Virus record (IMG/VR): IMGVR_UViG_3300011593_000002
Location: 1-37,691 of that record
Length of the DNA stretch: 37,691 nt
DNA from: a virus
Strand: one strand, 5' to 3'
Positions 22,566 through 37,691 of the stretch are shown here, one piece after another. The notes under the pieces were generated by a model, which was not told where the DNA came from, searched no databases, and saw nothing but the letters and a program-made list of their open reading frames with translations. Position 1 is the stretch's first letter. The number at the start of each line of letters is the position of its first letter. The position numbers and the translations under genes are program-made.

Positions 22566-23369
22566 TCAAAAATTATAAATAATCAACTCATTACCATTAT
22601 GCTCTTCATGAGCAGCTTTTGAGTTCACGGACCAGCGGATCTTACGATGTGTCATTTGATAATCTTTAAATAGCTCGCGCACTTCTGGCACATCATTCAA
22701 GCTCAAAATAAACTTGCCCTTAATCTGATCCAGTTTGTCCTTCAGCGTATAAAAATCATCTTTACTCCAGATGCCTTTGCCGTAGACGTTTTCACAATCC
22801 CAATAGGGCGGATCCAGATAAAACAACGTGTCTGGGCTATCCAGTCGAGTAATCACATAATCATAAGATCGATTTTCGATAACCACATTCTGCAAACGTT
22901 CATGTATCGACACCAGATGTTCACGTAAGCGTTCACCTAAGCGCATGCGGTTTGCTCGATCTTTTGAATAAGTAAATGAACCATCAAGTTGGCAACCAAA
23001 CGCAGAGCGTAGCAAATAATAAAACTTCACCGCCCGTTGAATATCAGTCAAACCAGATTGATCGCGCTTAAAATCATCAAACTGAGTTCGAGAAAATAGC
23101 AGCAACTCATATTCAGCTAGAAATGCATCAAAATGAAATTTCAACACTCGATATAAATTGATCAAGTCGTCATTAATATCGTTAATCACTTCAACAGTAG
23201 AAGCTGTCTTTTTAAAAAGTACCCAGCCAGCACCACCAAACACTTCAACATAAGTTTTATGTGCGGGCAGCATATCAATAATCGTTCTGGCCAGTTGAGA
23301 TTTACCGCCAAGCCAGCCACTGAAGCTGTGGCCACTAGGATTGTATTGCGGTGAGAGGTTTTGTGTCAT
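22566..23369 (-). CDS. N6-adenine DNA methyltransferase (Dam / D12 class)
   Basis: 267 aa from the ATG at 23369 (the ORF is open to GTG 23417). GGKSQLA...VEVFGGAGWVLF (AdoMet-binding motif) and FYLDPPYW (DPPY catalytic motif). Confidence 0.85.
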   Translation of the reverse strand: MTQNLSPQYNPSGHSFSGWLGGKSQLARTIIDMLPAHKTYVEVFGGAGWVLFKKTASTVEVINDINDDLINLYRVLKFHFDAFLAEYELLLFSRTQFDDFKRDQSGLTDIQRAVKFYYLLRSAFGCQLDGSFTYSKDRANRMRLGERLREHLVSIHERLQNVVIENRSYDYVITRLDSPDTLFYLDPPYWDCENVYGKGIWSKDDFYTLKDKLDQIKGKFILSLNDVPEVRELFKDYQMTHRKIRWSVNSKAAHEEHNGNELIIYNF

Positions 23370-23535
23370 GGATCTTACCTGATGAGGTCGGATGCTCTGG
23401 GCATTCAGGTAAGGCACTCAAGGTGCTCTGGAATTGATTTAAGGTTTTACAGCGAGGACATTTAATTTCAAGATTTCTAAAATTATCAATTCTCGCAAGA
23501 AGTTTAAAACAACAAATGCATTTCATATTTTGCAT
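23335..23535 (-). CDS. com: Com-like zinc-finger protein (phage Mu Com family translational activator)
   Basis: 66 aa. MKCICCFKLLARIDNFRNLEIKCPRCK closely parallels remembered Mu Com (CKNCNKLLFKADSFDHIEIRCPRCK). Its 3' end overlaps the methyltransferase start by about 35 nt. Confidence 0.75.
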   Translation of the reverse strand: MQNMKCICCFKLLARIDNFRNLEIKCPRCKTLNQFQSTLSALPECPEHPTSSGKIHDTKPLTAIQS

Positions 23536-23618: not shown

Positions 23619-23897
23619 ATGGACATAAATATAACCAGAAAAGCGACTATGGCATCTAAAAACTGTTTTTTATGTCCCCACTGTGCATCTAAGTTTTATT
23701 TGAGGACCAGCAAACTTGAGAGTCCCTTATTCCGAGTAGTTTACTTTCAATGTTCAAACATCAAGTGTGGATTTTCTGCCAGAGCAGAATTCGCAATCAC
23801 ACATCAAGTCGCACCTAGTGCAAACCCTAACCCACTTGTAAATTTAAAAACCTATGGTCATGAAGCTGATCAACGAAACGGAGCACTTAAAACGTGA
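23619..23897 (+). CDS. ogr: Ogr/Delta-family zinc-finger late transcription activator
   Basis: CPHC-X22-CSNIKC is exactly the C-X2-C-X22-C-X4-C spacing of P2 Ogr. The true start may be ATG 23649 (MASKNCFLCPHC). Confidence 0.8.
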   Translation: MDINITRKATMASKNCFLCPHCASKFYLRTSKLESPLFRVVYFQCSNIKCGFSARAEFAITHQVAPSANPNPLVNLKTYGHEADQRNGALKT

Positions 23898-24617: not shown

Positions 24618-24838
24618 ATCCAGAAGAACTATTCGAATTGTTTTTTCAAGACATCACGCCAGATATGAATCCACCAGGTATGAAATATCATTGTGAAGCG
24701 ATGCGCAGCTGGTGGCGCGAACGCTTTATGAATGCTTATTACGGTGTAGAAGAACCGTGGAGATTACGCAGTTGGGCAGAAGCACCACAGATGTGGTTGA
24801 AAGGGTATAGACAGTGCCAGAAAAATGAGACGCAATAG
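24614..24838 (+). CDS. Hypothetical protein (Trp-rich)
   Basis: 74 aa. ATGA overlap with the preceding gene. Confidence 0.5.
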   Translation: MNPEELFELFFQDITPDMNPPGMKYHCEAMRSWWRERFMNAYYGVEEPWRLRSWAEAPQMWLKGYRQCQKNETQ

Positions 24839-24848
24839 TCTCATTTTT
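24821..24848. terminator. Perfectly symmetric bidirectional terminator at the convergent gene ends
   Basis: AAAAATGAGAC-gcaata-GTCTCATTTTT. It overlaps the stop codons of both 24614-24838 (+) and 24841-25749 (-). Confidence 0.7.
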
Positions 24849-25749
24849 CATAATAAATATAAGTTAATTCTTTGGCGTAGAAATTAATAAATTTACCATT
24901 TTTACTTAATTGAGGAGGCAATTGGCTAAAAATATAAACAGTAATAGGTTGCGGTTTATTATTCTTAGTTCTTCTTGCAGCAAGTTGCTTTAAAGTTTTT
25001 TCTGAAAAACGACCATTTTCAGCTTCATTAGCAATTTTATTTGTATATAACATCAAGCTTGGATTTTGATTTAATTCATCAAGCTGGACTTTTTTACTGA
25101 AAGTAAATTGAATCCCGTTGGGTTTAGGATTAATCCAAGCTGTTCCATAATATATTTTTGGTTCTTCCTCAAGATCTTCGATATTTGTAACTTCATCCAT
25201 ATTCACAAATAAATCACGAATATGAATTTCTTCATCATTATAAATTACTGAAATATCAGCATCATCATTAAAAAGTTTAACCCAACTCGACAATGCTTTT
25301 TTAGATGGTCTTACACCAAATTGGCTTTGTCCATTTGTAGTGCCTGAACTATTGGTGGTAGGGTCAGTTAAGGCAGATGCACCTTGTGTAGCTGTTTCAG
25401 TTTTTTTTGTTGAAGGCTTATCTAAATTTAAAAATGCAAATTTATCCGAAATATACCTTCTTGGTTTTGACTCTTGACGTTCCTGTAGTTCTCGTTCGAT
25501 TTTTTCTATTTTGTCTTTTTCTTTACAAGCTGGAGTATGATCACCGACATAAATGTAATAAGGTTCTTTTTTTCGTTTTGAAACTTCTTTTAATAAATTC
25601 GCACAAGTTATCTGTGCGTCACAATTCTCATCTATACATTCAAATAAATATTTAGATTTAATATTTCCCAATTCACGCTGATGATCTGCTTCCGCTGTAG
25701 TAATTATTTGGCCAGTTTCTAAAGACTTTGCTAATGTAATCGTTACCAT
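24841..25749 (-). CDS. Hypothetical protein: N-terminal Cys/His zinc-ribbon-like region, S/T-rich linker, unknown C-terminal domain
   Basis: 302 aa. FECIDENCDAQITCAN...VGDHTPAC resembles the N-terminal layout of CoiA-like Zn-ribbon proteins. Low-complexity linker (TETATQGASALTDPTTNSSGTTNGQ). Last gene of the cargo operon. Confidence 0.6.
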   Translation of the reverse strand: MVTITLAKSLETGQIITTAEADHQRELGNIKSKYLFECIDENCDAQITCANLLKEVSKRKKEPYYIYVGDHTPACKEKDKIEKIERELQERQESKPRRYISDKFAFLNLDKPSTKKTETATQGASALTDPTTNSSGTTNGQSQFGVRPSKKALSSWVKLFNDDADISVIYNDEEIHIRDLFVNMDEVTNIEDLEEEPKIYYGTAWINPKPNGIQFTFSKKVQLDELNQNPSLMLYTNKIANEAENGRFSEKTLKQLAARRTKNNKPQPITVYIFSQLPPQLSKNGKFINFYAKELTYIYYEK

Positions 25750-25794
25750 TTTACCAAATACTCAATGTAGGTTTGTTCCCAAAATTTCATAAGT

Positions 25795-26262
25795 TTATTT
25801 CACTGCCTTATAAAATTTTTGTTCATATTTTTTAGCATCTGTTGGTGTCATTTCACGATCAAGACGAAGTAAAAACAGGCCCTTTTTGTACATATATTGA
25901 TTAGTCATGGGCATCGCCAAATGTACGCTCTTAATATAATTATAACGTCTTTCCAAATCTGCCTGATTCCTAAATTTCTCAATTGTACCGCCAATGAAAT
26001 CGTCAGGATTATCACTTTCGTAATATCCATCACTTTCAAACTTTGGATCAATTAGTGGATCTGGCCACGAAACTTTTTCAATGTACTGATTAGGACGACC
26101 AAGCTGTTTATTTAAATCATTTTTTTCATTGAATGGATACAGAAAATCTAAACCTTTAATATCAAGTTTCAATGCGACTTCAAATGCACTTTGAGCAAAA
26201 CTTAAATTTGAAAAAATTGAGATGGATATCAATAAAAAAATACGAATCAAACTTTTACCCAT
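25795..26262 (-). CDS. Secreted (Sec signal peptide) hypothetical protein
   Basis: 155 aa. MGKSLIRIFLLISISIFSNLSFA|QS is a classical signal peptide with an AxA-like cleavage site and no lipobox Cys. Confidence 0.6.
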   Translation of the reverse strand: MGKSLIRIFLLISISIFSNLSFAQSAFEVALKLDIKGLDFLYPFNEKNDLNKQLGRPNQYIEKVSWPDPLIDPKFESDGYYESDNPDDFIGGTIEKFRNQADLERRYNYIKSVHLAMPMTNQYMYKKGLFLLRLDREMTPTDAKKYEQKFYKAVK

Positions 26263-26302
26263 GAAATTTAAGTCCTAAATAAATTTTCTTCAAAGTTTTA
26301 AA

Positions 26303-27211
26303 TCAATTTTCAATTGGTAATCCAATTGCTTGAATAAAATCATCCTCAGTAATAATTTTTATATCATGACCCTGTTGCTGCCATTTTTTTGCTTCTTCAA
26401 ATTTTCGACCATAGCTAACATGTGCCCAAGCTTTGTTACCTTTATTACAGATTACTAAATAATTTACAGTGGTAGTCATATCATCAATGAACTTACCGCC
26501 ATTGTTCTCAATTAGAGCTTTCCAGTCTTTTTTCTTGAAACGGCTTGAAGTACCTGTAAAACAATAAAGGGCATTTTCAATTAGTAGTTGACCTTTAAAA
26601 AAATCAGGATTATCTATTGTTTCAATTTTAGTTCTCAATGTGCCATGATCATCTGGATCAACATACCGTTTTATTTGTTTGAACAATGCTTGAATATCAA
26701 AATCTGTTAAATCATCTTGTTTAGTTCTTACAGGACGTAACGATGTATAAACTTCCTGAAAAAATACATCATCTTCTAAATAGTCATGTTCTTTCATCCA
26801 AGTATTTAAAGCCTTAGCTTCATCTATACTCAAAGTACCATCGCAAACTACTCCAGCCAATAGCCCGTGAAGCCGTTGAACATCTCTAGTATTTTTTGAA
26901 TAGAACTTTCCTGAAATAAAAATCTTAATCACTTCAACAAATTGTTTGCACTTTTCTTCATCTAATTTTTGCGAACCAATAACTGTTTGACCTAATAAGT
27001 GAATTAAATGATCAAAAGGATATTGACAATAGATTTCAGGATTTCTTTCCATCCATACCTGTAAGGCATAAATTTCTTTCTTATTGATTGTATGATCTAA
27101 AATAATGCCTTCTAAGAATCCTAAAAAATTATTTATTTCTTTATCAATTATCGCAGTCCCCATAAATCTATTTATTAGTTCTTCATCTAAATTTTCTATT
27201 TTTTTATCCAT
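26303..27211 (-). CDS. Tandem TerB-like repeats + C-terminal BRCT domain protein
   Basis: 302 aa from the ATG at 27211 (the ORF is open to 27292 but that part covers the operator palindromes). C-terminus FTGTSSRFKKKDWKALIENNGGKFIDDMTTTVNYLVICNKGN...KFEEAKKW...IKIITEDDF aligns with the remembered LigA BRCT. Two copies of an L.G...G...D..I...E..AL..WM motif are TerB/DjlA-N-like. Confidence 0.65.
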   Translation of the reverse strand: MDKKIENLDEELINRFMGTAIIDKEINNFLGFLEGIILDHTINKKEIYALQVWMERNPEIYCQYPFDHLIHLLGQTVIGSQKLDEEKCKQFVEVIKIFISGKFYSKNTRDVQRLHGLLAGVVCDGTLSIDEAKALNTWMKEHDYLEDDVFFQEVYTSLRPVRTKQDDLTDFDIQALFKQIKRYVDPDDHGTLRTKIETIDNPDFFKGQLLIENALYCFTGTSSRFKKKDWKALIENNGGKFIDDMTTTVNYLVICNKGNKAWAHVSYGRKFEEAKKWQQQGHDIKIITEDDFIQAIGLPIEN

Positions 27212-27232
27212 ATAATCCAACGTCTTATAAAA

Positions 27233-27268
27233 ATAGTGAATCACTATCTTGACATAGTGGCACACTAT
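27233..27268. promoter_or_regulatory. Two tandem 15-bp operator palindromes ATAGTG-N3-CACTAT (27233-27247, 27254-27268)
   Basis: Both palindromes are perfect and their centres are 21 bp apart. The second overlaps a minus-strand TTGCGG-N17-TATAGT promoter facing the cargo operon and a plus-strand TTGACA (27249-27254). CTATAGTGTGCC is shared with the repressor/early intergenic region (29595-29606). Confidence 0.6.
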
Positions 27269-27283
27269 AGGCAACATGTATTT

Positions 27284-27370
27284 ACACCGCAAAATCGGTG
27301 TACAGGCGTGGAAACCTGTTTTTGAATGTACAAGAGAGCAGAAAACATCCGCTCAAAGCGGCTTTTTTTT
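27284..27370 (+). ncRNA. Possible short transcript / attenuator with two terminator hairpins
   Basis: Three hairpins: CACCG/CGGTG (27285-27300), ACAGG/CCTGT + TTTT (27302-27323), and CCGCT/AGCGG + C + T8 (27349-27370). It contains GTACAAGAG (27328-27336), complementary to the loop at 27440-27448. The start point is inferred only. Confidence 0.3.
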
Positions 27371-27396: not shown

Positions 27397-27402
27397 CGTT
27401 AT

Positions 27403-27500
27403 GGCAGATCGGGCAGGGCAGCTTTTAGCTGGCCGTTTACTCTTGTACGGTATTTCCACCCCTGTTCGGTCTGCCACCATTCTGTGGAAAGAATGGCGGT
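27403..27500 (+). ncRNA. Structured leader / candidate c4-like antisense RNA
   Basis: 15-bp stem 27403-27417 with 27461-27475, including 3 G-U pairs (so strand-specific to plus). Second hairpin 27474-27499. The internal loop TTTACTCTTGT (27436-27446) is perfectly complementary to ACAAGAGTAAA (27516-27526), which covers the RBS of the next ORF. Confidence 0.5.
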
Positions 27501-27531: not shown

Positions 27532-27702
27532 ATGAGAAAATCAATTCATGTGCAAGAGCACACTGCTATCTATAGCCTAGACACCTATAACCAACGTCTC
27601 CGCCAGCTCCAACGTCAAAAACGCCTAAAAATCCTGTTCGATTGCATGGGTTATTTCTGTATCTGCTTTCTTACGTTCTCCTTATTATTTTTGGGAGAGT
27701 AA
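27532..27702 (+). CDS. Small protein with a C-terminal transmembrane segment (below the ORF-track cutoff)
   Basis: 56 aa, MRKSIHVQEHTAIYSLDTYNQRLRQLQRQKRLKILFDCMGYFCICFLTFSLLFLGE. An AAGAG SD-like sequence lies 9 nt upstream. Confidence 0.4.
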   Translation: MRKSIHVQEHTAIYSLDTYNQRLRQLQRQKRLKILFDCMGYFCICFLTFSLLFLGE

Positions 27703-27704
27703 TC

Positions 27705-27785
27705 ATGCATCCAGCCATCATCGCATTTCTATTTTTTCTATTATTAAGCTCAATGTACTTACTGGTGGGAGCATGGCAGCTATGA
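27705..27785 (+). CDS. Very small hydrophobic peptide
   Basis: 26 aa, MHPAIIAFLFFLLLSSMYLLVGAWQL. It starts 2 nt after the previous stop and overlaps the Rha-family start. Confidence 0.3.
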   Translation: MHPAIIAFLFFLLLSSMYLLVGAWQL

Positions 27786-28594
27786 CCACATTCGAATTAC
27801 AACATGCAGTTTTTATCCAAAACGACCAAATCAAAACAGATAGCCTAAAAGTGGCCGAAGTCTTTGGTAAACGCCACAGCGACATTATTCGTGCAATAAA
27901 AAACATAGAATGTTCACCTGATTTCACTGAACGCAATTTTGCGCTCAGTGAATATGAGGACAAATCAGGTCGTGCTTTACCCATGTACGAAATGACCAAA
28001 GATGGTTTTGTCTTCCTGGCCATGAGCTTTACAGGTGCCAAAGCTGCCCAAGTTAAAGAAGCCTATATCAAAGCCTTTAACCACATGGCAGAAGTGCTAT
28101 ACAAACAACAAAATCAAATCCAGACCATCGATGTTGGTTCGGTGGTACGTCTACGCTCAGGAAGTCCAGATCTCACCGTAAATCATGTTTTTGATGACGT
28201 TGCAGAGGTCATTTGGTTTAGAGGAGGGCGAATTGTCCGGGAGCAATTACCTATTAGTTGTCTAACCTTAGGCGAAAGTGACCGTTTAGCTCCAACTGTC
28301 AGCTATACCCTCGATACGTTTTGGTCAAACCTATACAACTATGGTGTACACAACCTTAATCACAGCAACCGTACCGATCAAATCGCGCTTAACATTTCCC
28401 AAGTCGTCGATCTTTTCCCACAACTATTCACCAGAAATGACCTGTTGCAAAACTTGCCACATAGCAAACCACCATATCCACAATATGTCGAACACAATGT
28501 TCCCATGCAAAGTCGACTTGAAAGAAAAACTGTCCGCTGCTGGATATTTCAAGGCAATCATCCAACCATGATTGATGTAAAAGCAAAGGGGTAA
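27773..28594 (+). CDS. Rha-family phage regulatory protein with a DUF2158/YodC-like central domain
   Basis: 273 aa. ...TDSLKVAEVFGKRHSDIIRAIKN...NF..SEY.D..GR.LPMYEMTKDGF.FLAMSFTG.KA...KEAYI.AFN.M is the Phage_pRha signature. VGSVVRLRSGSPDLTV......AEVIWF is YodC-like. Confidence 0.8.
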   Translation: MAAMTTFELQHAVFIQNDQIKTDSLKVAEVFGKRHSDIIRAIKNIECSPDFTERNFALSEYEDKSGRALPMYEMTKDGFVFLAMSFTGAKAAQVKEAYIKAFNHMAEVLYKQQNQIQTIDVGSVVRLRSGSPDLTVNHVFDDVAEVIWFRGGRIVREQLPISCLTLGESDRLAPTVSYTLDTFWSNLYNYGVHNLNHSNRTDQIALNISQVVDLFPQLFTRNDLLQNLPHSKPPYPQYVEHNVPMQSRLERKTVRCWIFQGNHPTMIDVKAKG

Positions 28595-29202: not shown

Positions 29203-29553
29203 TTATTTGGGTTCCACATCTTTTGCATACGCCTTACTTAAGCCAAGTAATGCAGCCTGTCCTTCAGGGCTTAACTGTCTATAGGCCTTTAACAACACAC
29301 TTTCTTCACTGGTTAAGCCACTAAAGTCCGGATCTATTCCAAGCAATACATAACGAATATCAACGCCTTGTTTCTGCAATCGGTTTAGATATACCCACTG
29401 GTCCGGCACATTCCCACGTACATATGCTCCCAGCGTATTTTCACTTGCTCCAATCTCACGTGACAACGTTTTAGCACGTAAATGCTTGTTATCCAGCTCA
29501 ACTTTGAAACGATGAGCAATTTCACCTGAAATTTCAGGGTCAATAGACGGCAT
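29203..29553 (-). CDS. CI/C-type prophage repressor (XRE-family HTH)
   Basis: 116 aa. LRAKTLSREIGASENTLGAYVRG is a helix-turn-helix. Divergent from the small early genes, as at the P2 C/cox switch. Confidence 0.75.
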   Translation of the reverse strand: MPSIDPEISGEIAHRFKVELDNKHLRAKTLSREIGASENTLGAYVRGNVPDQWVYLNRLQKQGVDIRYVLLGIDPDFSGLTSEESVLLKAYRQLSPEGQAALLGLSKAYAKDVEPK

Positions 29554-29594: not shown

Positions 29595-29621
29595 CTATAG
29601 TGTGCCTTAGCATACCACTAT
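29595..29621. promoter_or_regulatory. Early promoter/operator region of the immunity switch
   Basis: CTATAGTGTGCC (29595-29606) contains a TATAGT -10 and is identical to the 12-mer in the operator at 27259-27270 (reverse strand). The partner half-site CACTAT is at 29616-21. Confidence 0.5.
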
Positions 29622-29636
29622 TACCTAGAGTACCGT

Positions 29637-29831
29637 ATGAGCAAACAAATTTCACCTTACGCTACGCGTCCTAGATCTAAAAAGATTAATGGTGGGCGTG
29701 TCCGCTGTGTTGTGTATCTACCCAAAGAAGAAGTGGACGAACTCGACGCTATTGTTGAAAAAACTGACATGAGTCGATCAAGTCTCATCGCACAAACCTA
29801 TTTCGTTGGAAAACAAGCAACCACTAATTAA
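29637..29831 (+). CDS. Ribbon-helix-helix (CopG/Arc-like) early regulator, Cro/Cox analogue
   Basis: 64 aa. RVRCVVYLPKEEVDELDAIVEKTDMSRSSLIAQ fits the RHH beta-strand/helix pattern. First gene of the rightward early operon. Confidence 0.6.
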   Translation: MSKQISPYATRPRSKKINGGRVRCVVYLPKEEVDELDAIVEKTDMSRSSLIAQTYFVGKQATTN

Positions 29832-36139: not shown

Positions 36140-37300
36140 ATGTCTGCAGGATTAGAAATTCGCGGAAAATCGATGCGCATCTGGATGCGACCGATCGCAA
36201 CTGAACCACTAATTAAAGAAACACTCGACTGGCCATTTACACCAGAAAATCAGGAACGCGCAGAGAAGCTGGCCAACCTCATTAAATTGGAGATCCAGCT
36301 CGATCAATTTCAACTGGCCAAACACTTCCCAAACTCTAAAAATATTAAAAAAAATCAAGTCAGCTACTATGCCCAGCAATATCTTGATCAAACCATAAGA
36401 GAAGTTGCACCGAGTACATATGATTCTTATCGTGGTCATGTAAACAACCATATCGTCCCTAAATTTGGGAAAATTCATCCAAAAGATATCAATACCAACA
36501 TGCTTAAAAGATGGATTGAAGATCTAAAGGAGTCGCTAAACAACAAAACAGTGCGAGAAATAATTACTCGGTTCGCGCAGATCCATGCGATCTGGAGAGA
36601 TGAAAAGCAAATGCCCTATAACCCATTTGAAAATATTGTGATTCATCAGCTTGATCCACCAGAGCCGGATCCATTTAGCAAAGTCGAAATCGCCATGATT
36701 TTAAATACTGAAACAGATCTCGATATTCAAAATCTATTGCCATGCTTATTCTGGACTGGACTTTCAATGTCAGAACAAATTCCTATCGCTTGGGAAGATA
36801 TCGATCTGGAGAACGGTACCATTCAAATATCCAGATCCTATGTCCGGGGTATTTATCGCGTCACTAAAAACCGACGTAGAAAAAGACGAATCAAGCTGCT
36901 CGAACCGGCTATTCAAGCACTTAAAAAGCAATATCAAACTACAGGTAATACAAGACCAAAAACCATTGAAGTACTGCAGCGTGACAACAAGACCAAACGT
37001 ATAGAAAAAGTCCGCTTTGTTTGGGGCAATCATGAACGCTCAAATCACTTCGAATACCACGAACTCAGGTACCGCTGGAATAAACATTTAAAAAAAGCGA
37101 AGGTACGTGGGCGTGGAATCAATCAAGGTCGGCATACCTTTGCCAGCCAGCTTTTAACCTCAGGCCAAGTTCCTCCGGAGTGGATTGCAGAGCAGCTTGG
37201 TCATAGTGATACGTCAATGATTTATAAGCATTATGGAAAGTTAATCGCAGAAGATCTGCCTGACTACATCACAAAGCTGAATAACTATATTTCGATGTAA
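36140..37300 (+). CDS. int: Tyrosine integrase with an N-terminal arm-type DNA-binding domain
   Basis: 386 aa. GLEIRGKSMRIWM is a lambda-like arm-binding N-terminus. GRHTFASQLL (box II HxxR) and LGHSDTSMIYKHYGKL (catalytic Tyr). Last gene before the right att. Confidence 0.9.
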   Translation: MSAGLEIRGKSMRIWMRPIATEPLIKETLDWPFTPENQERAEKLANLIKLEIQLDQFQLAKHFPNSKNIKKNQVSYYAQQYLDQTIREVAPSTYDSYRGHVNNHIVPKFGKIHPKDINTNMLKRWIEDLKESLNNKTVREIITRFAQIHAIWRDEKQMPYNPFENIVIHQLDPPEPDPFSKVEIAMILNTETDLDIQNLLPCLFWTGLSMSEQIPIAWEDIDLENGTIQISRSYVRGIYRVTKNRRRKRRIKLLEPAIQALKKQYQTTGNTRPKTIEVLQRDNKTKRIEKVRFVWGNHERSNHFEYHELRYRWNKHLKKAKVRGRGINQGRHTFASQLLTSGQVPPEWIAEQLGHSDTSMIYKHYGKLIAEDLPDYITKLNNYISM

Positions 37301-37615: not shown

Positions 37616-37691
37616 CGGAGCATAGCACAGCCTGGTAGTGCACCTGGTTTGGGACCAGGGGGTCGTAGGTTCGAATCCTACTGCTCCGACC
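37616..37691 (+). tRNA. tRNA-Pro (anticodon UGG); last A of CCA lies outside the window
   Basis: CGGAGCA acceptor pairs with TGCTCCG. D-arm GCACAGCCTGGTAGTGC, anticodon loop TTTGGGA, T-arm GTAGGTTCGAATCCTAC. Positions 37620-37691 are identical to 1-72. Confidence 0.92.

Follow-up and report, generated by a model that had tools for sequence, protein, structure and literature searches.

A variable cargo slot in an Acinetobacter P2-like prophage carries a BRCT gene of the K139 Orf2 family and two uncharacterised genes

Orf2 of the Vibrio cholerae phage K139, described by Nesper and colleagues in 1999 (J Bacteriol 181:2902), reportedly confers superinfection immunity. In the K139 genome (GenBank NC_003313) the gene order is cI-orf2-glo-int, with glo annotated as encoding a periplasmic phage-exclusion protein, and Orf2 is credited with superinfection immunity in a review (PMC7997343). 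According to work cited in a later article, glo first came to notice as a virulence-linked gene in mice (PMC13171446). P2-like prophages of Escherichia coli carry a defence hotspot between replication gene A and portal gene Q, beside cos (Rousset et al., 2022; PMC9122126). Here we describe a block of three minus-strand genes, termed g1, g2 and g3, in a stretch of viral DNA of 37,691 nucleotides (nt) (IMG/VR record IMGVR_UViG_3300011593_000002, positions 1 to 37,691; hereafter the window). The region is a further example of a known phenomenon, the prophage cargo hotspot, and it adds a further protein to the K139 Orf2 family along with two uncharacterised genes. With somewhat more confidence than doubt, we regard the block as a cargo slot holding three independent cassettes that may serve superinfection exclusion or defence.

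The gene g1 (26303-27211, minus strand) encodes a cytoplasmic protein of 302 amino acids (aa) in which two helical repeats precede a C-terminal BRCT domain. Its true start is most likely the ATG at 27211, which gives a product of 302 aa in agreement with the length in NCBI records. The initial annotation, made from the sequence without database searches, had called the BRCT domain, and both the call and the expected alpha/beta fold are borne out. Pfam PF00533 matches g1 with 30.5 bits (cut-off 21.3; E 4e-7) and matches 23 of 24 members of the g1 family. An AlphaFold2 (AF2) model with a predicted local distance difference test (pLDDT) score of 83 has a helical N-terminal part followed by a canonical BRCT fold, whose elements at residues 215-296 run beta1-alpha1-beta2-beta3-alpha2-beta4-alpha3. 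Foldseek comparisons with g1 return mainly BRCT domains, the top ten all being of this type with a probability of 1.00 (LigA, RFC1, Rad4/TopBP1, PARP1), and the best matches of the g1 family profile among PDB sequences are the BRCT domains of RFC1 and LigA.

Three residues of this domain, T219, G220 and K270, are invariant throughout the g1 family alignment, including K139 Orf2. We take them to correspond to the Ser/Thr-Gly...Lys triad with which BRCT domains bind phosphate. When the alignment is placed on the AF2 model, the Thr-Gly pair follows beta1 and the Lys opens alpha2, as in a BRCT phosphate pocket. The pocket of g1 appears to be intact, and ligand binding is predicted from the alignment and the model.

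Beyond the BRCT domain, g1 and K139 Orf2 align over residues 23-297, or 91% of the protein, with 22% identity (pairwise comparison, E 9e-15), and a separate high-scoring segment pair confined to the repeats reaches E 1e-11. By this alignment, g1 is a full-length homologue of Vibrio cholerae phage K139 Orf2. It also matches PHROG 3989 (E 1.7e-52) and, in NCBIfam, the DnaQ-BRCT protein family PRK06195. A weaker similarity links g1 to the PADLOC model PDC-S48 (E 4e-4), over model positions 230-405 of 411 only, and the same C-terminal half of PDC-S48 is matched by K139 Orf2 (E 3e-8) and by Pseudomonas phage relatives. Scans with Pfam and PADLOC detect no RNase_T/DEDDh domain in g1, which by these profile matches is a nuclease-less relative of the PADLOC candidate. 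We take PDC-S48 itself to be a candidate defence system only, and literature searches on PDC-S48, on BRCT with prophage and on DEDDh with BRCT yielded nothing relevant. The initial view that the three products resemble nothing named is overturned by the homology to K139 Orf2 and, weakly, by that to PDC-S48.

The N-terminal part of g1 is an internal duplication comprising two repeats. The repeats noticed initially are therefore real, whereas their description as TerB/DjlA-like is not supported. Specifically, Pfam TerB (PF05099) touches just one of the 24 family members (E 0.098), hhalign aligns a 'DG....E' motif with E. coli DjlA at a probability of 0.9%, and a profile of the N-terminal part finds nothing relevant in the PDB.

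Two Bacteroidota loci present other arrangements of these domains. In a Dyadobacter metagenome-assembled genome (L030, 3401-4879), a DEDDh (RNase_T) exonuclease is fused before the helical and BRCT module in a protein of 492 aa; this g1 relative matches PDC-S48 with E 7e-26 from the exonuclease into the helical region. In a second Bacteroidota locus (L033, 1990-3925), a g1-like gene precedes a second gene, whose product is an exonuclease-BRCT protein of 307 aa.

The contents of the corresponding position in related Acinetobacter P2-like prophages reveal how the three genes are organized. We define the slot by its flanks, which are the ogr/Com-Dam block on one side and the C4/Rha/C region on the other. 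In the window, 24841-27232 is a variable cargo slot, whose edges are a backbone promoter/operator region and a terminator beside a gene for a 74-aa protein. Among the relatives, a g3-like gene follows a 496-aa transmembrane (TM) protein and a 198-aa lipoprotein, or a 276-aa TM protein and an Excalibur protein, or a 192-aa protein and an HNH_5 protein. A g1-like gene is accompanied by one for a 93-aa lipoprotein in many genomes, that of A. baumannii AYE among them, an arrangement that is very common in A. baumannii; elsewhere it is paired with a 230-aa multi-TM protein, or with a KAP NTPase and a 4-TM protein (L042, 4418-6453), or it stands alone. Other slots hold a 343-aa protein, a g2-like protein, SRAP, UmuD and UmuC (L015-L017, 5491-8037), or a g2-like and an Excalibur protein, or g1 (84-100% identical) and g2 without g3. 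A g3-like gene also occurs alone, adjoining a different integrase. This variety of cargo supports the earlier suggestion of a moron or cargo slot between ogr and the immunity region.

Several of these neighbours deserve mention on their own account. The KAP NTPase of L042, which is QatA-/PifA-like and matches PADLOC PDC-S20 (E 1.6e-68), is a recognisable defence candidate within the same slot. In two IMG/VR loci whose g1 is 100% identical (L039/L040, 4922-5155), a 77-aa gene with no Pfam match takes the place of g3. The 343-aa protein of L015 was considered as a degenerate g1 and proved unrelated on testing.

Because every one of the three genes can be found in this slot of relatives with neither of its two partners, g1, g2 and g3 are separate single-gene cassettes that are exchanged independently while sharing a slot and a transcript. 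The co-occurrence expected of the components of a multi-gene system is not found, and the proposal in the initial annotation that the three genes function together fails by the annotation's own test of independent occurrence. A single integrated defence or anti-defence system, made of a BRCT sensor, a periplasmic part and a zinc-ribbon effector, would explain the tight same-strand spacing and the presence of one promoter and one terminator with no internal ones detected. Nevertheless, we consider it extremely unlikely, given that near-identical g1-g2 pairs lack g3, that g3 stands behind three unrelated cargos, and that g1-like genes occur alone and g2-like genes without g1. A direct complex of g1 with g2 would, moreover, be impossible with g1 cytoplasmic and g2 periplasmic, as predicted.

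A looser association is apparent at g1. By our own reading of the loci, in about 14 of 17 distinct g1-family contexts, which include Vibrio, Pseudomonas, Bacteroidota and high-GC relatives, a gene for a membrane or secreted protein adjoins g1 on the same strand, against a background of 5 membrane or secreted products among the 48 open reading frames (ORFs) of this prophage. Such neighbours fit layered envelope and cytoplasmic barriers. An obligate module of g1 and an envelope partner was also considered, and it is weakened by slots with g1 alone and by neighbourhoods that are cytoplasmic only (L014, L031-33).

In two unrelated high-GC loci, L038 (4576-4938) and L057 (4075-4395), a small secreted protein comes directly after the g1 relative, and both of these proteins carry a common motif, C-TTKDGW, just past the signal peptide. 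This observation suggests that a conserved pair of BRCT and secreted proteins exists outside Acinetobacter. Further along L057 (4554-6273), the high-GC g1 relative and the secreted protein are followed by ORFs that look like UmuD and UmuC from an inspection of their N-terminal sequence only. Translesion-synthesis genes appear to share the cargo position with BRCT genes.

The middle gene, g2 (25795-26262, minus strand), encodes a 155-aa protein of an Acinetobacter family with a predicted Sec signal peptide. Its N-terminus is hydrophobic and signal-peptide-like (MGKSLIRIFLLISISIFSNLSFA/QS) with an SFA/Q cleavage motif; these traits support the initial proposal of a Sec signal, and export to the periplasm is predicted. 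The g2 family numbers about 130 clusters and has no Pfam match. Scans of g2 with PADLOC, NCBIfam and PHROG gave nothing informative, the PHROG similarity being to family 8870 (E 2e-5), and tblastn of g2 against phages found no match. Comparison of g2 with K139 Glo detected no similarity (best BLASTP E 0.91), and only the export signal and the gene position are alike.

Remote homologues of g2 reside in chromosomal, non-phage surroundings. Their location could indicate that the slot supplies factors for lysogenic conversion or host fitness, such as envelope remodelling or virulence, which have nothing to do with phage competition. The abundance of lipoproteins, secreted proteins and Excalibur proteins in the slot would agree with such a role, as would the first link of K139 glo to virulence in mice (cited in PMC13171446). 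We nonetheless judge this explanation very unlikely: g1 and g3 are cytoplasmic and of a type suited to binding nucleic acids, and Glo was later assigned to phage exclusion.

The last gene, g3 (24841-25749, minus strand), encodes a 302-aa protein with a Cys/His zinc domain (residues 1-95), a linker (96-150) and a beta-rich OB-like domain (150-302). Its AF2 model has a pLDDT of 77 and a predicted template modelling score of 0.76, with the Ser/Thr-rich linker disordered. Across 54 family members, C38, C43, H71 and C75 are invariant and C49 is almost so. The Cys/His cluster described initially is thus a conserved feature, whereas its assignment to the CoiA type of zinc ribbon fails, as g3 itself has no Pfam hit at E<=1 and no CoiA-family match occurs among the hits at E<=0.1 for the 54 members. 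These same searches found no meaningful Pfam match of any kind for the g3 family, and weak matches to DMTF1_N in 12 of the 54 relatives were taken as noise. Scans of g3 with PADLOC, NCBIfam and PHROG were likewise uninformative, tblastn of g3 against phages gave no match, and the sole match of the g3 profile among PDB sequences, a dynein light chain, was judged spurious.

The family is nonetheless extensive. There are 33 close clusters of g3, and an exhaustive profile search gathers 246 representative clusters, most of which are about 300 aa long and are matched over almost their whole length. Homology to g3 in relatives begins at the ATG and ends with the stop codon. Remote relatives stand singly in other mobile elements, and a search for related loci with a narrow g3 alignment yielded five. 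One distant relative lies in a 170-kb IMG/VR contig (L062, 1862-3114, minus strand) near ORFs that, by a look at their sequences, are DprA/Smf-like and ComF-type phosphoribosyltransferase-like; these surroundings resemble a defence island. Within the g3 coding region itself, a hairpin of 7 pairs (4 of them GC) at 25600-25618 on the minus strand fits the terminator consensus, probably by chance.

Foldseek searches with the C-terminal domain of g3 reach best E values of 1.2e-2 in the PDB and 8.6e-3 in BFVD, with none <=1e-3. These weak lists consist mostly of OB-fold proteins that bind nucleic acids, namely RPA, SSB, Teb1, LEF-3, MCM10 and the anticodon-binding domain of LysRS. We take g3 to be a probable binder of nucleic acid.

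Taken with the BRCT domain of g1, these OB-fold similarities raise the alternative that g1, and perhaps g3, are accessories of DNA repair, replication or damage tolerance, g1 being a LigA-like BRCT adaptor and g3 an OB/Zn binder of single-stranded DNA, which would help phage or host to process DNA ends. The closeness of the g1 BRCT to those of LigA and RFC1, the match to PRK06195, the g1 relatives fused to or beside DEDDh exonucleases, the SRAP-UmuD-UmuC genes in the same slot elsewhere, the UmuD-/UmuC-like ORFs behind the L057 g1 relative and the weak g3 matches to SSB, RPA and LEF-3 can all be read in this way. Such a role would leave the superinfection phenotype reported for K139 Orf2 (PMC7997343) unexplained, as well as the definition of PDC-S48 as a defence-island candidate by PADLOC. 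An envelope protein beside g1 in most contexts examined is also unexpected for repair factors, and g1 has no catalytic domain. We regard repair or replication accessories as distinctly unlikely.

For the exclusion or defence function that we favour, we hypothesize the following course of events. A single transcript that starts at the backbone promoter would cover the cassettes g1, g2 and g3. The LigA/RFC1-type BRCT domain of g1 would bind phosphate-bearing ends or nicks in the DNA of an incoming phage or, alternatively, a host protein that works on them, and this binding would block establishment of the incoming genome, which would be seen as superinfection immunity. In the periplasm, g2 would act at an envelope step, as K139 Glo does, although the two are not homologous, while g3 would act independently by binding nucleic acid.

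Several observations weigh against an exclusion or defence function. The fold matches of g3 all lie below significance, and g2 has no detectable similarity to Glo. For the phenotype of K139 Orf2, our sources are GenBank notes and a review. The slot can carry SRAP and UmuDC, and g1 relatives are fused to or stand beside DnaQ-type exonucleases; these links therefore keep a role in DNA metabolism under consideration. Finally, orf2-glo of K139 is part of a lysogenic cI operon, whereas the promoter here resembles a duplicate of the early promoter, which is under repressor control, and so the timing of expression may differ between the two phages.

A broader conjecture can be built on the exclusion reading, and we consider it unlikely. 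Orf2-family BRCT proteins might constitute a widespread nuclease-less exclusion module, with members in phages of Acinetobacter, Vibrio and Pseudomonas as well as in Bacteroidota and high-GC relatives, that recognises 5'-phosphorylated ends or nicks of injected DNA by its LigA/RFC1-type BRCT. These proteins would perhaps compete with host ligase at cohesive ends, and they would act in series with the hypervariable envelope proteins encoded alongside. By the same conjecture, g3 would stand for another, wholly uncharacterised family of Zn/OB-like exclusion proteins that are encoded by single genes and bind nucleic acid.

The slot is entered from a putative sigma-70 promoter on the minus strand (27264-27292), read from the sequence as TTGCGG(27292-27287)-N17-TATAGT(27269-27264). 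Two 15-bp palindromic putative operators, ATAGTGAATCACTAT and ATAGTGGCACACTAT, lie at 27233-27247 and 27254-27268, 21 bp apart, and span the -10 element of the cargo promoter, the transcription start and positions +10 to +24. They are perfect palindromes, ATAGTGnnnCACTAT, and the window holds no further perfect copy. The 12-mer CTATAGTGTGCC, which covers the cargo -10 and the nucleotides downstream, is found again over the early promoter's -10, at 29595-29606. Both the operator-bearing promoter and the sharing of its 12-mer with the early promoter are thus as initially described. At the early promoter, which faces a Cox-like gene, the -10 and operator sequence CTATAGTGTGCC...CACTAT extends over 29595-29621, and its half-sites, ATAGTG-N13-CACTAT with a 13-nt spacer, are kept in relatives of the same immunity type.

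The candidate regulators lie nearby. A putative C-type immunity repressor of 116 aa (29203-29553, minus strand), with no Pfam match, is proposed by position and size only, and divergent from it is the ribbon-helix-helix Cox-like gene (29637-29831; RHH_1 E 2.7e-4). Two prophages whose immunity types differ from this one (L009, L015) have short motifs of their own, 8-10 nt long, that are weakly shared between the slot promoter and the C/cox region of the phage itself, which hints that the slot element is controlled by the immunity repressor of each phage. Control of the cargo promoter of this prophage by its repressor is likewise predicted from these sequence elements.

The cargo promoter is conserved in prophages with different cargo, and the conserved stretch of promoter/operator DNA ends some 15 nt after the second operator; from there on, the sequence changes with the cargo. 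The operators belong to the conserved backbone and are not private to the cargo operon. Both of them cover the cargo promoter as well as a putative divergent promoter on the plus strand, the two promoters overlapping back to back, and they may exist mainly for silencing the antirepressor module that lies on that side. The arrangement supports the initial idea of a repressor-controlled cargo promoter and agrees equally well with operators whose main task would be to silence the antirepressor module; with the K139 homologues in a lysogenic operon, the cargo may be expressed early or in the lysogen.

This arrangement brings up the possibility that the block is an early lytic, repressor-controlled module for host takeover or counter-defence that is silent in the lysogen. 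The identity of the cargo -10 and downstream 12-mer with that of the early promoter, the placement of the operators over the -10, the start and +10 to +24, and the hint of covariation between slot promoter and C-cox motifs in L009 and L015 speak for this idea. We still find it unlikely, since the operators also sit on the divergent isrK/C4-Rha promoter and may mainly keep the antirepressor module off, and since the K139 homologue is in a lysogenic operon. In addition, other cargos of the slot are defence-like (KAP NTPase/PDC-S20, HNH), and the PADLOC, Pfam, PHROG and NCBIfam scans returned no match to known anti-defence proteins.

The anatomy of the block agrees with the initial description of three closely spaced, AT-rich minus-strand genes. 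The ORFs occupy 24841-25749 (g3), 25795-26262 (g2) and 26303-27292 (the long form of g1), with gaps of 40 and 45 nt. Neither gap folds into a hairpin of any stability (dG of -2.2 and -4.3 kcal/mol; z scores of +1.5 and +0.8), the gaps being no better than shuffled sequences. The GC content is 0.30-0.33 over 25001-27000, compared with about 0.38-0.47 for most of the remaining phage. A nucleotide search of the block against a phage collection gave no match.

The slot is closed by an intrinsic terminator hairpin at 24821-24850, which has a 12-bp stem with a T-run on each side and encompasses the g3 stop codon. Its bidirectional, symmetric character, also noted initially, is supported by folding energies of -15.5 kcal/mol (minus strand) and -16.7 kcal/mol (plus strand), with z scores of -5.8 and -7.1 and none of 200 shuffles as stable. 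The block is probably one transcript from the operator-bearing promoter.

The whole window is a complete P2-like (Peduoviridae) Acinetobacter prophage integrated at tRNA-Pro, because full-length tRNA-Pro(TGG) genes lie at both ends (2-73 and 37616-37691). An integrase-sized ORF (36140-37300) adjoins the right-hand tRNA copy. The tail sheath is about 70% identical to the tail sheaths of Fels-2 and SopEPhi, and the same or near-same g1, g2 and g3 proteins are found in Acinetobacter nosocomialis, A. ursingii, A. baumannii and Acinetobacter sp. 1130196. To the left of g3, in order, are a Dam-type methylase, a Com-like zinc ribbon, Ogr/Delta and three small genes, of which the one nearest g3 is the conserved 74-aa ORF ending at 24838. 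To the right of the block are a C4 antisense RNA, a Rha-family gene, the putative C repressor and the ribbon-helix-helix Cox-like gene.

The methylase, a 283-aa ORF (22566-23417, minus strand), is assigned as Dam-type via homologous genes in related loci. A gene for a Mu Com-like zinc ribbon (Pfam E 1.3e-9) overlaps the start of this D12-class Dam-like ORF, and the pair, at 22566-23535 on the minus strand, is divergent from the Ogr/Delta zinc-finger gene (23619-23897, plus strand; Pfam E 1.8e-12) and is kept in most relatives. The overlap suggests Com-type translational control of the methylase.

On the other side of the slot, the putative divergent promoter on the plus strand (27249-27277) is read from the sequence as TTGACA(27249-27254)-N17-CAACAT(27272-27277), and both of its hexamers are conserved in relatives. 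Its predicted start at about 27284 coincides with the beginning, at 27283, of an Rfam isrK/c4-a1b1 match, an isrK/c4-a1b1-like leader RNA at 27283-27368 on the plus strand (isrK 44.9 bits against a gathering score of 50, E 2e-8; c4-a1b1 20.6 bits). The leader ends in a hairpin and T-run (27349-27370, plus strand) that form a terminator-like site. It is followed by a C4 antisense RNA of the P1/P7 immI type (27397-27481, plus strand), which matches Rfam RF01695 over the full-length model (69 bits, gathering score 45; E 1.5e-11). At the position of icd is a 56-aa ORF with a hydrophobic C-terminus (27532-27702), for which no similarity to Icd was detected, and beyond it lies a gene for a Rha-family regulator or antirepressor (27773-28594, plus strand; Pfam Phage_pRha E 1e-30). 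By these matches and their order, the isrK/C4-Rha unit is a P1-immI-like antirepressor control module in a P2-like prophage.

These data define a previously undescribed cargo hotspot of Acinetobacter P2-like prophages, placed differently from the E. coli P2 hotspot, whose contents are mostly envelope proteins, together with a few that resemble components of defence systems. K139 Orf2, after 25 years without a mechanism, gains a hypothesis at the level of its domains, in which a BRCT domain of the DNA-end type operates in a nuclease-less PDC-S48 relative. Many Orf2 homologues are supplied for pursuing this hypothesis, one of which is very common in clinical A. baumannii, and g3 is flagged as the representative of a broad unannotated protein family. 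Such prophage-borne exclusion genes might influence host range in phage therapy against Acinetobacter.

As noted above, the orf2-glo pair of K139 is the closest counterpart of this block. Orf2 (301 aa) and g1 (302 aa) both have two helical repeats and a C-terminal BRCT domain, both genes lie beside the immunity region of a P2-like temperate phage, and in both cases a gene for a small Sec-exported protein (Glo in K139 and, by prediction, g2 here) follows on the same strand. However, the identity between Orf2 and g1 is just 22%, g2 and Glo are not detectably related, and K139 has no g3. Moreover, orf2-glo belongs to a cI-int lysogenic operon, whereas the cargo here has its own operator-bearing, early-like promoter. 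The likeness to PDC-S48 (DEDDh exonuclease, helical region and BRCT, about 411 aa) is limited to its C-terminal half, which is matched by the second repeat and BRCT of g1; in place of the exonuclease domain, g1 has a second copy of the helical repeat.

Similarly, the isrK/C4-Rha flank has the components of the P1/P7 immI region (c4-icd-ant) and of Salmonella Gifsy isrK, namely an isrK/a1b1-like leader, a C4 RNA, a Rha-type regulator and a promoter under repressor-type operators. In this example, the module flanks cargo, and it does so in a P2-like rather than a P1-like genome. As in the E. coli P2 hotspot, a fixed backbone position swaps unrelated accessory, exclusion or defence genes among close relatives (PMC9122126). 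The Acinetobacter slot differs in lying between ogr/Com-Dam and C4/Rha, and in that most of its cargo carries no recognised defence domain.

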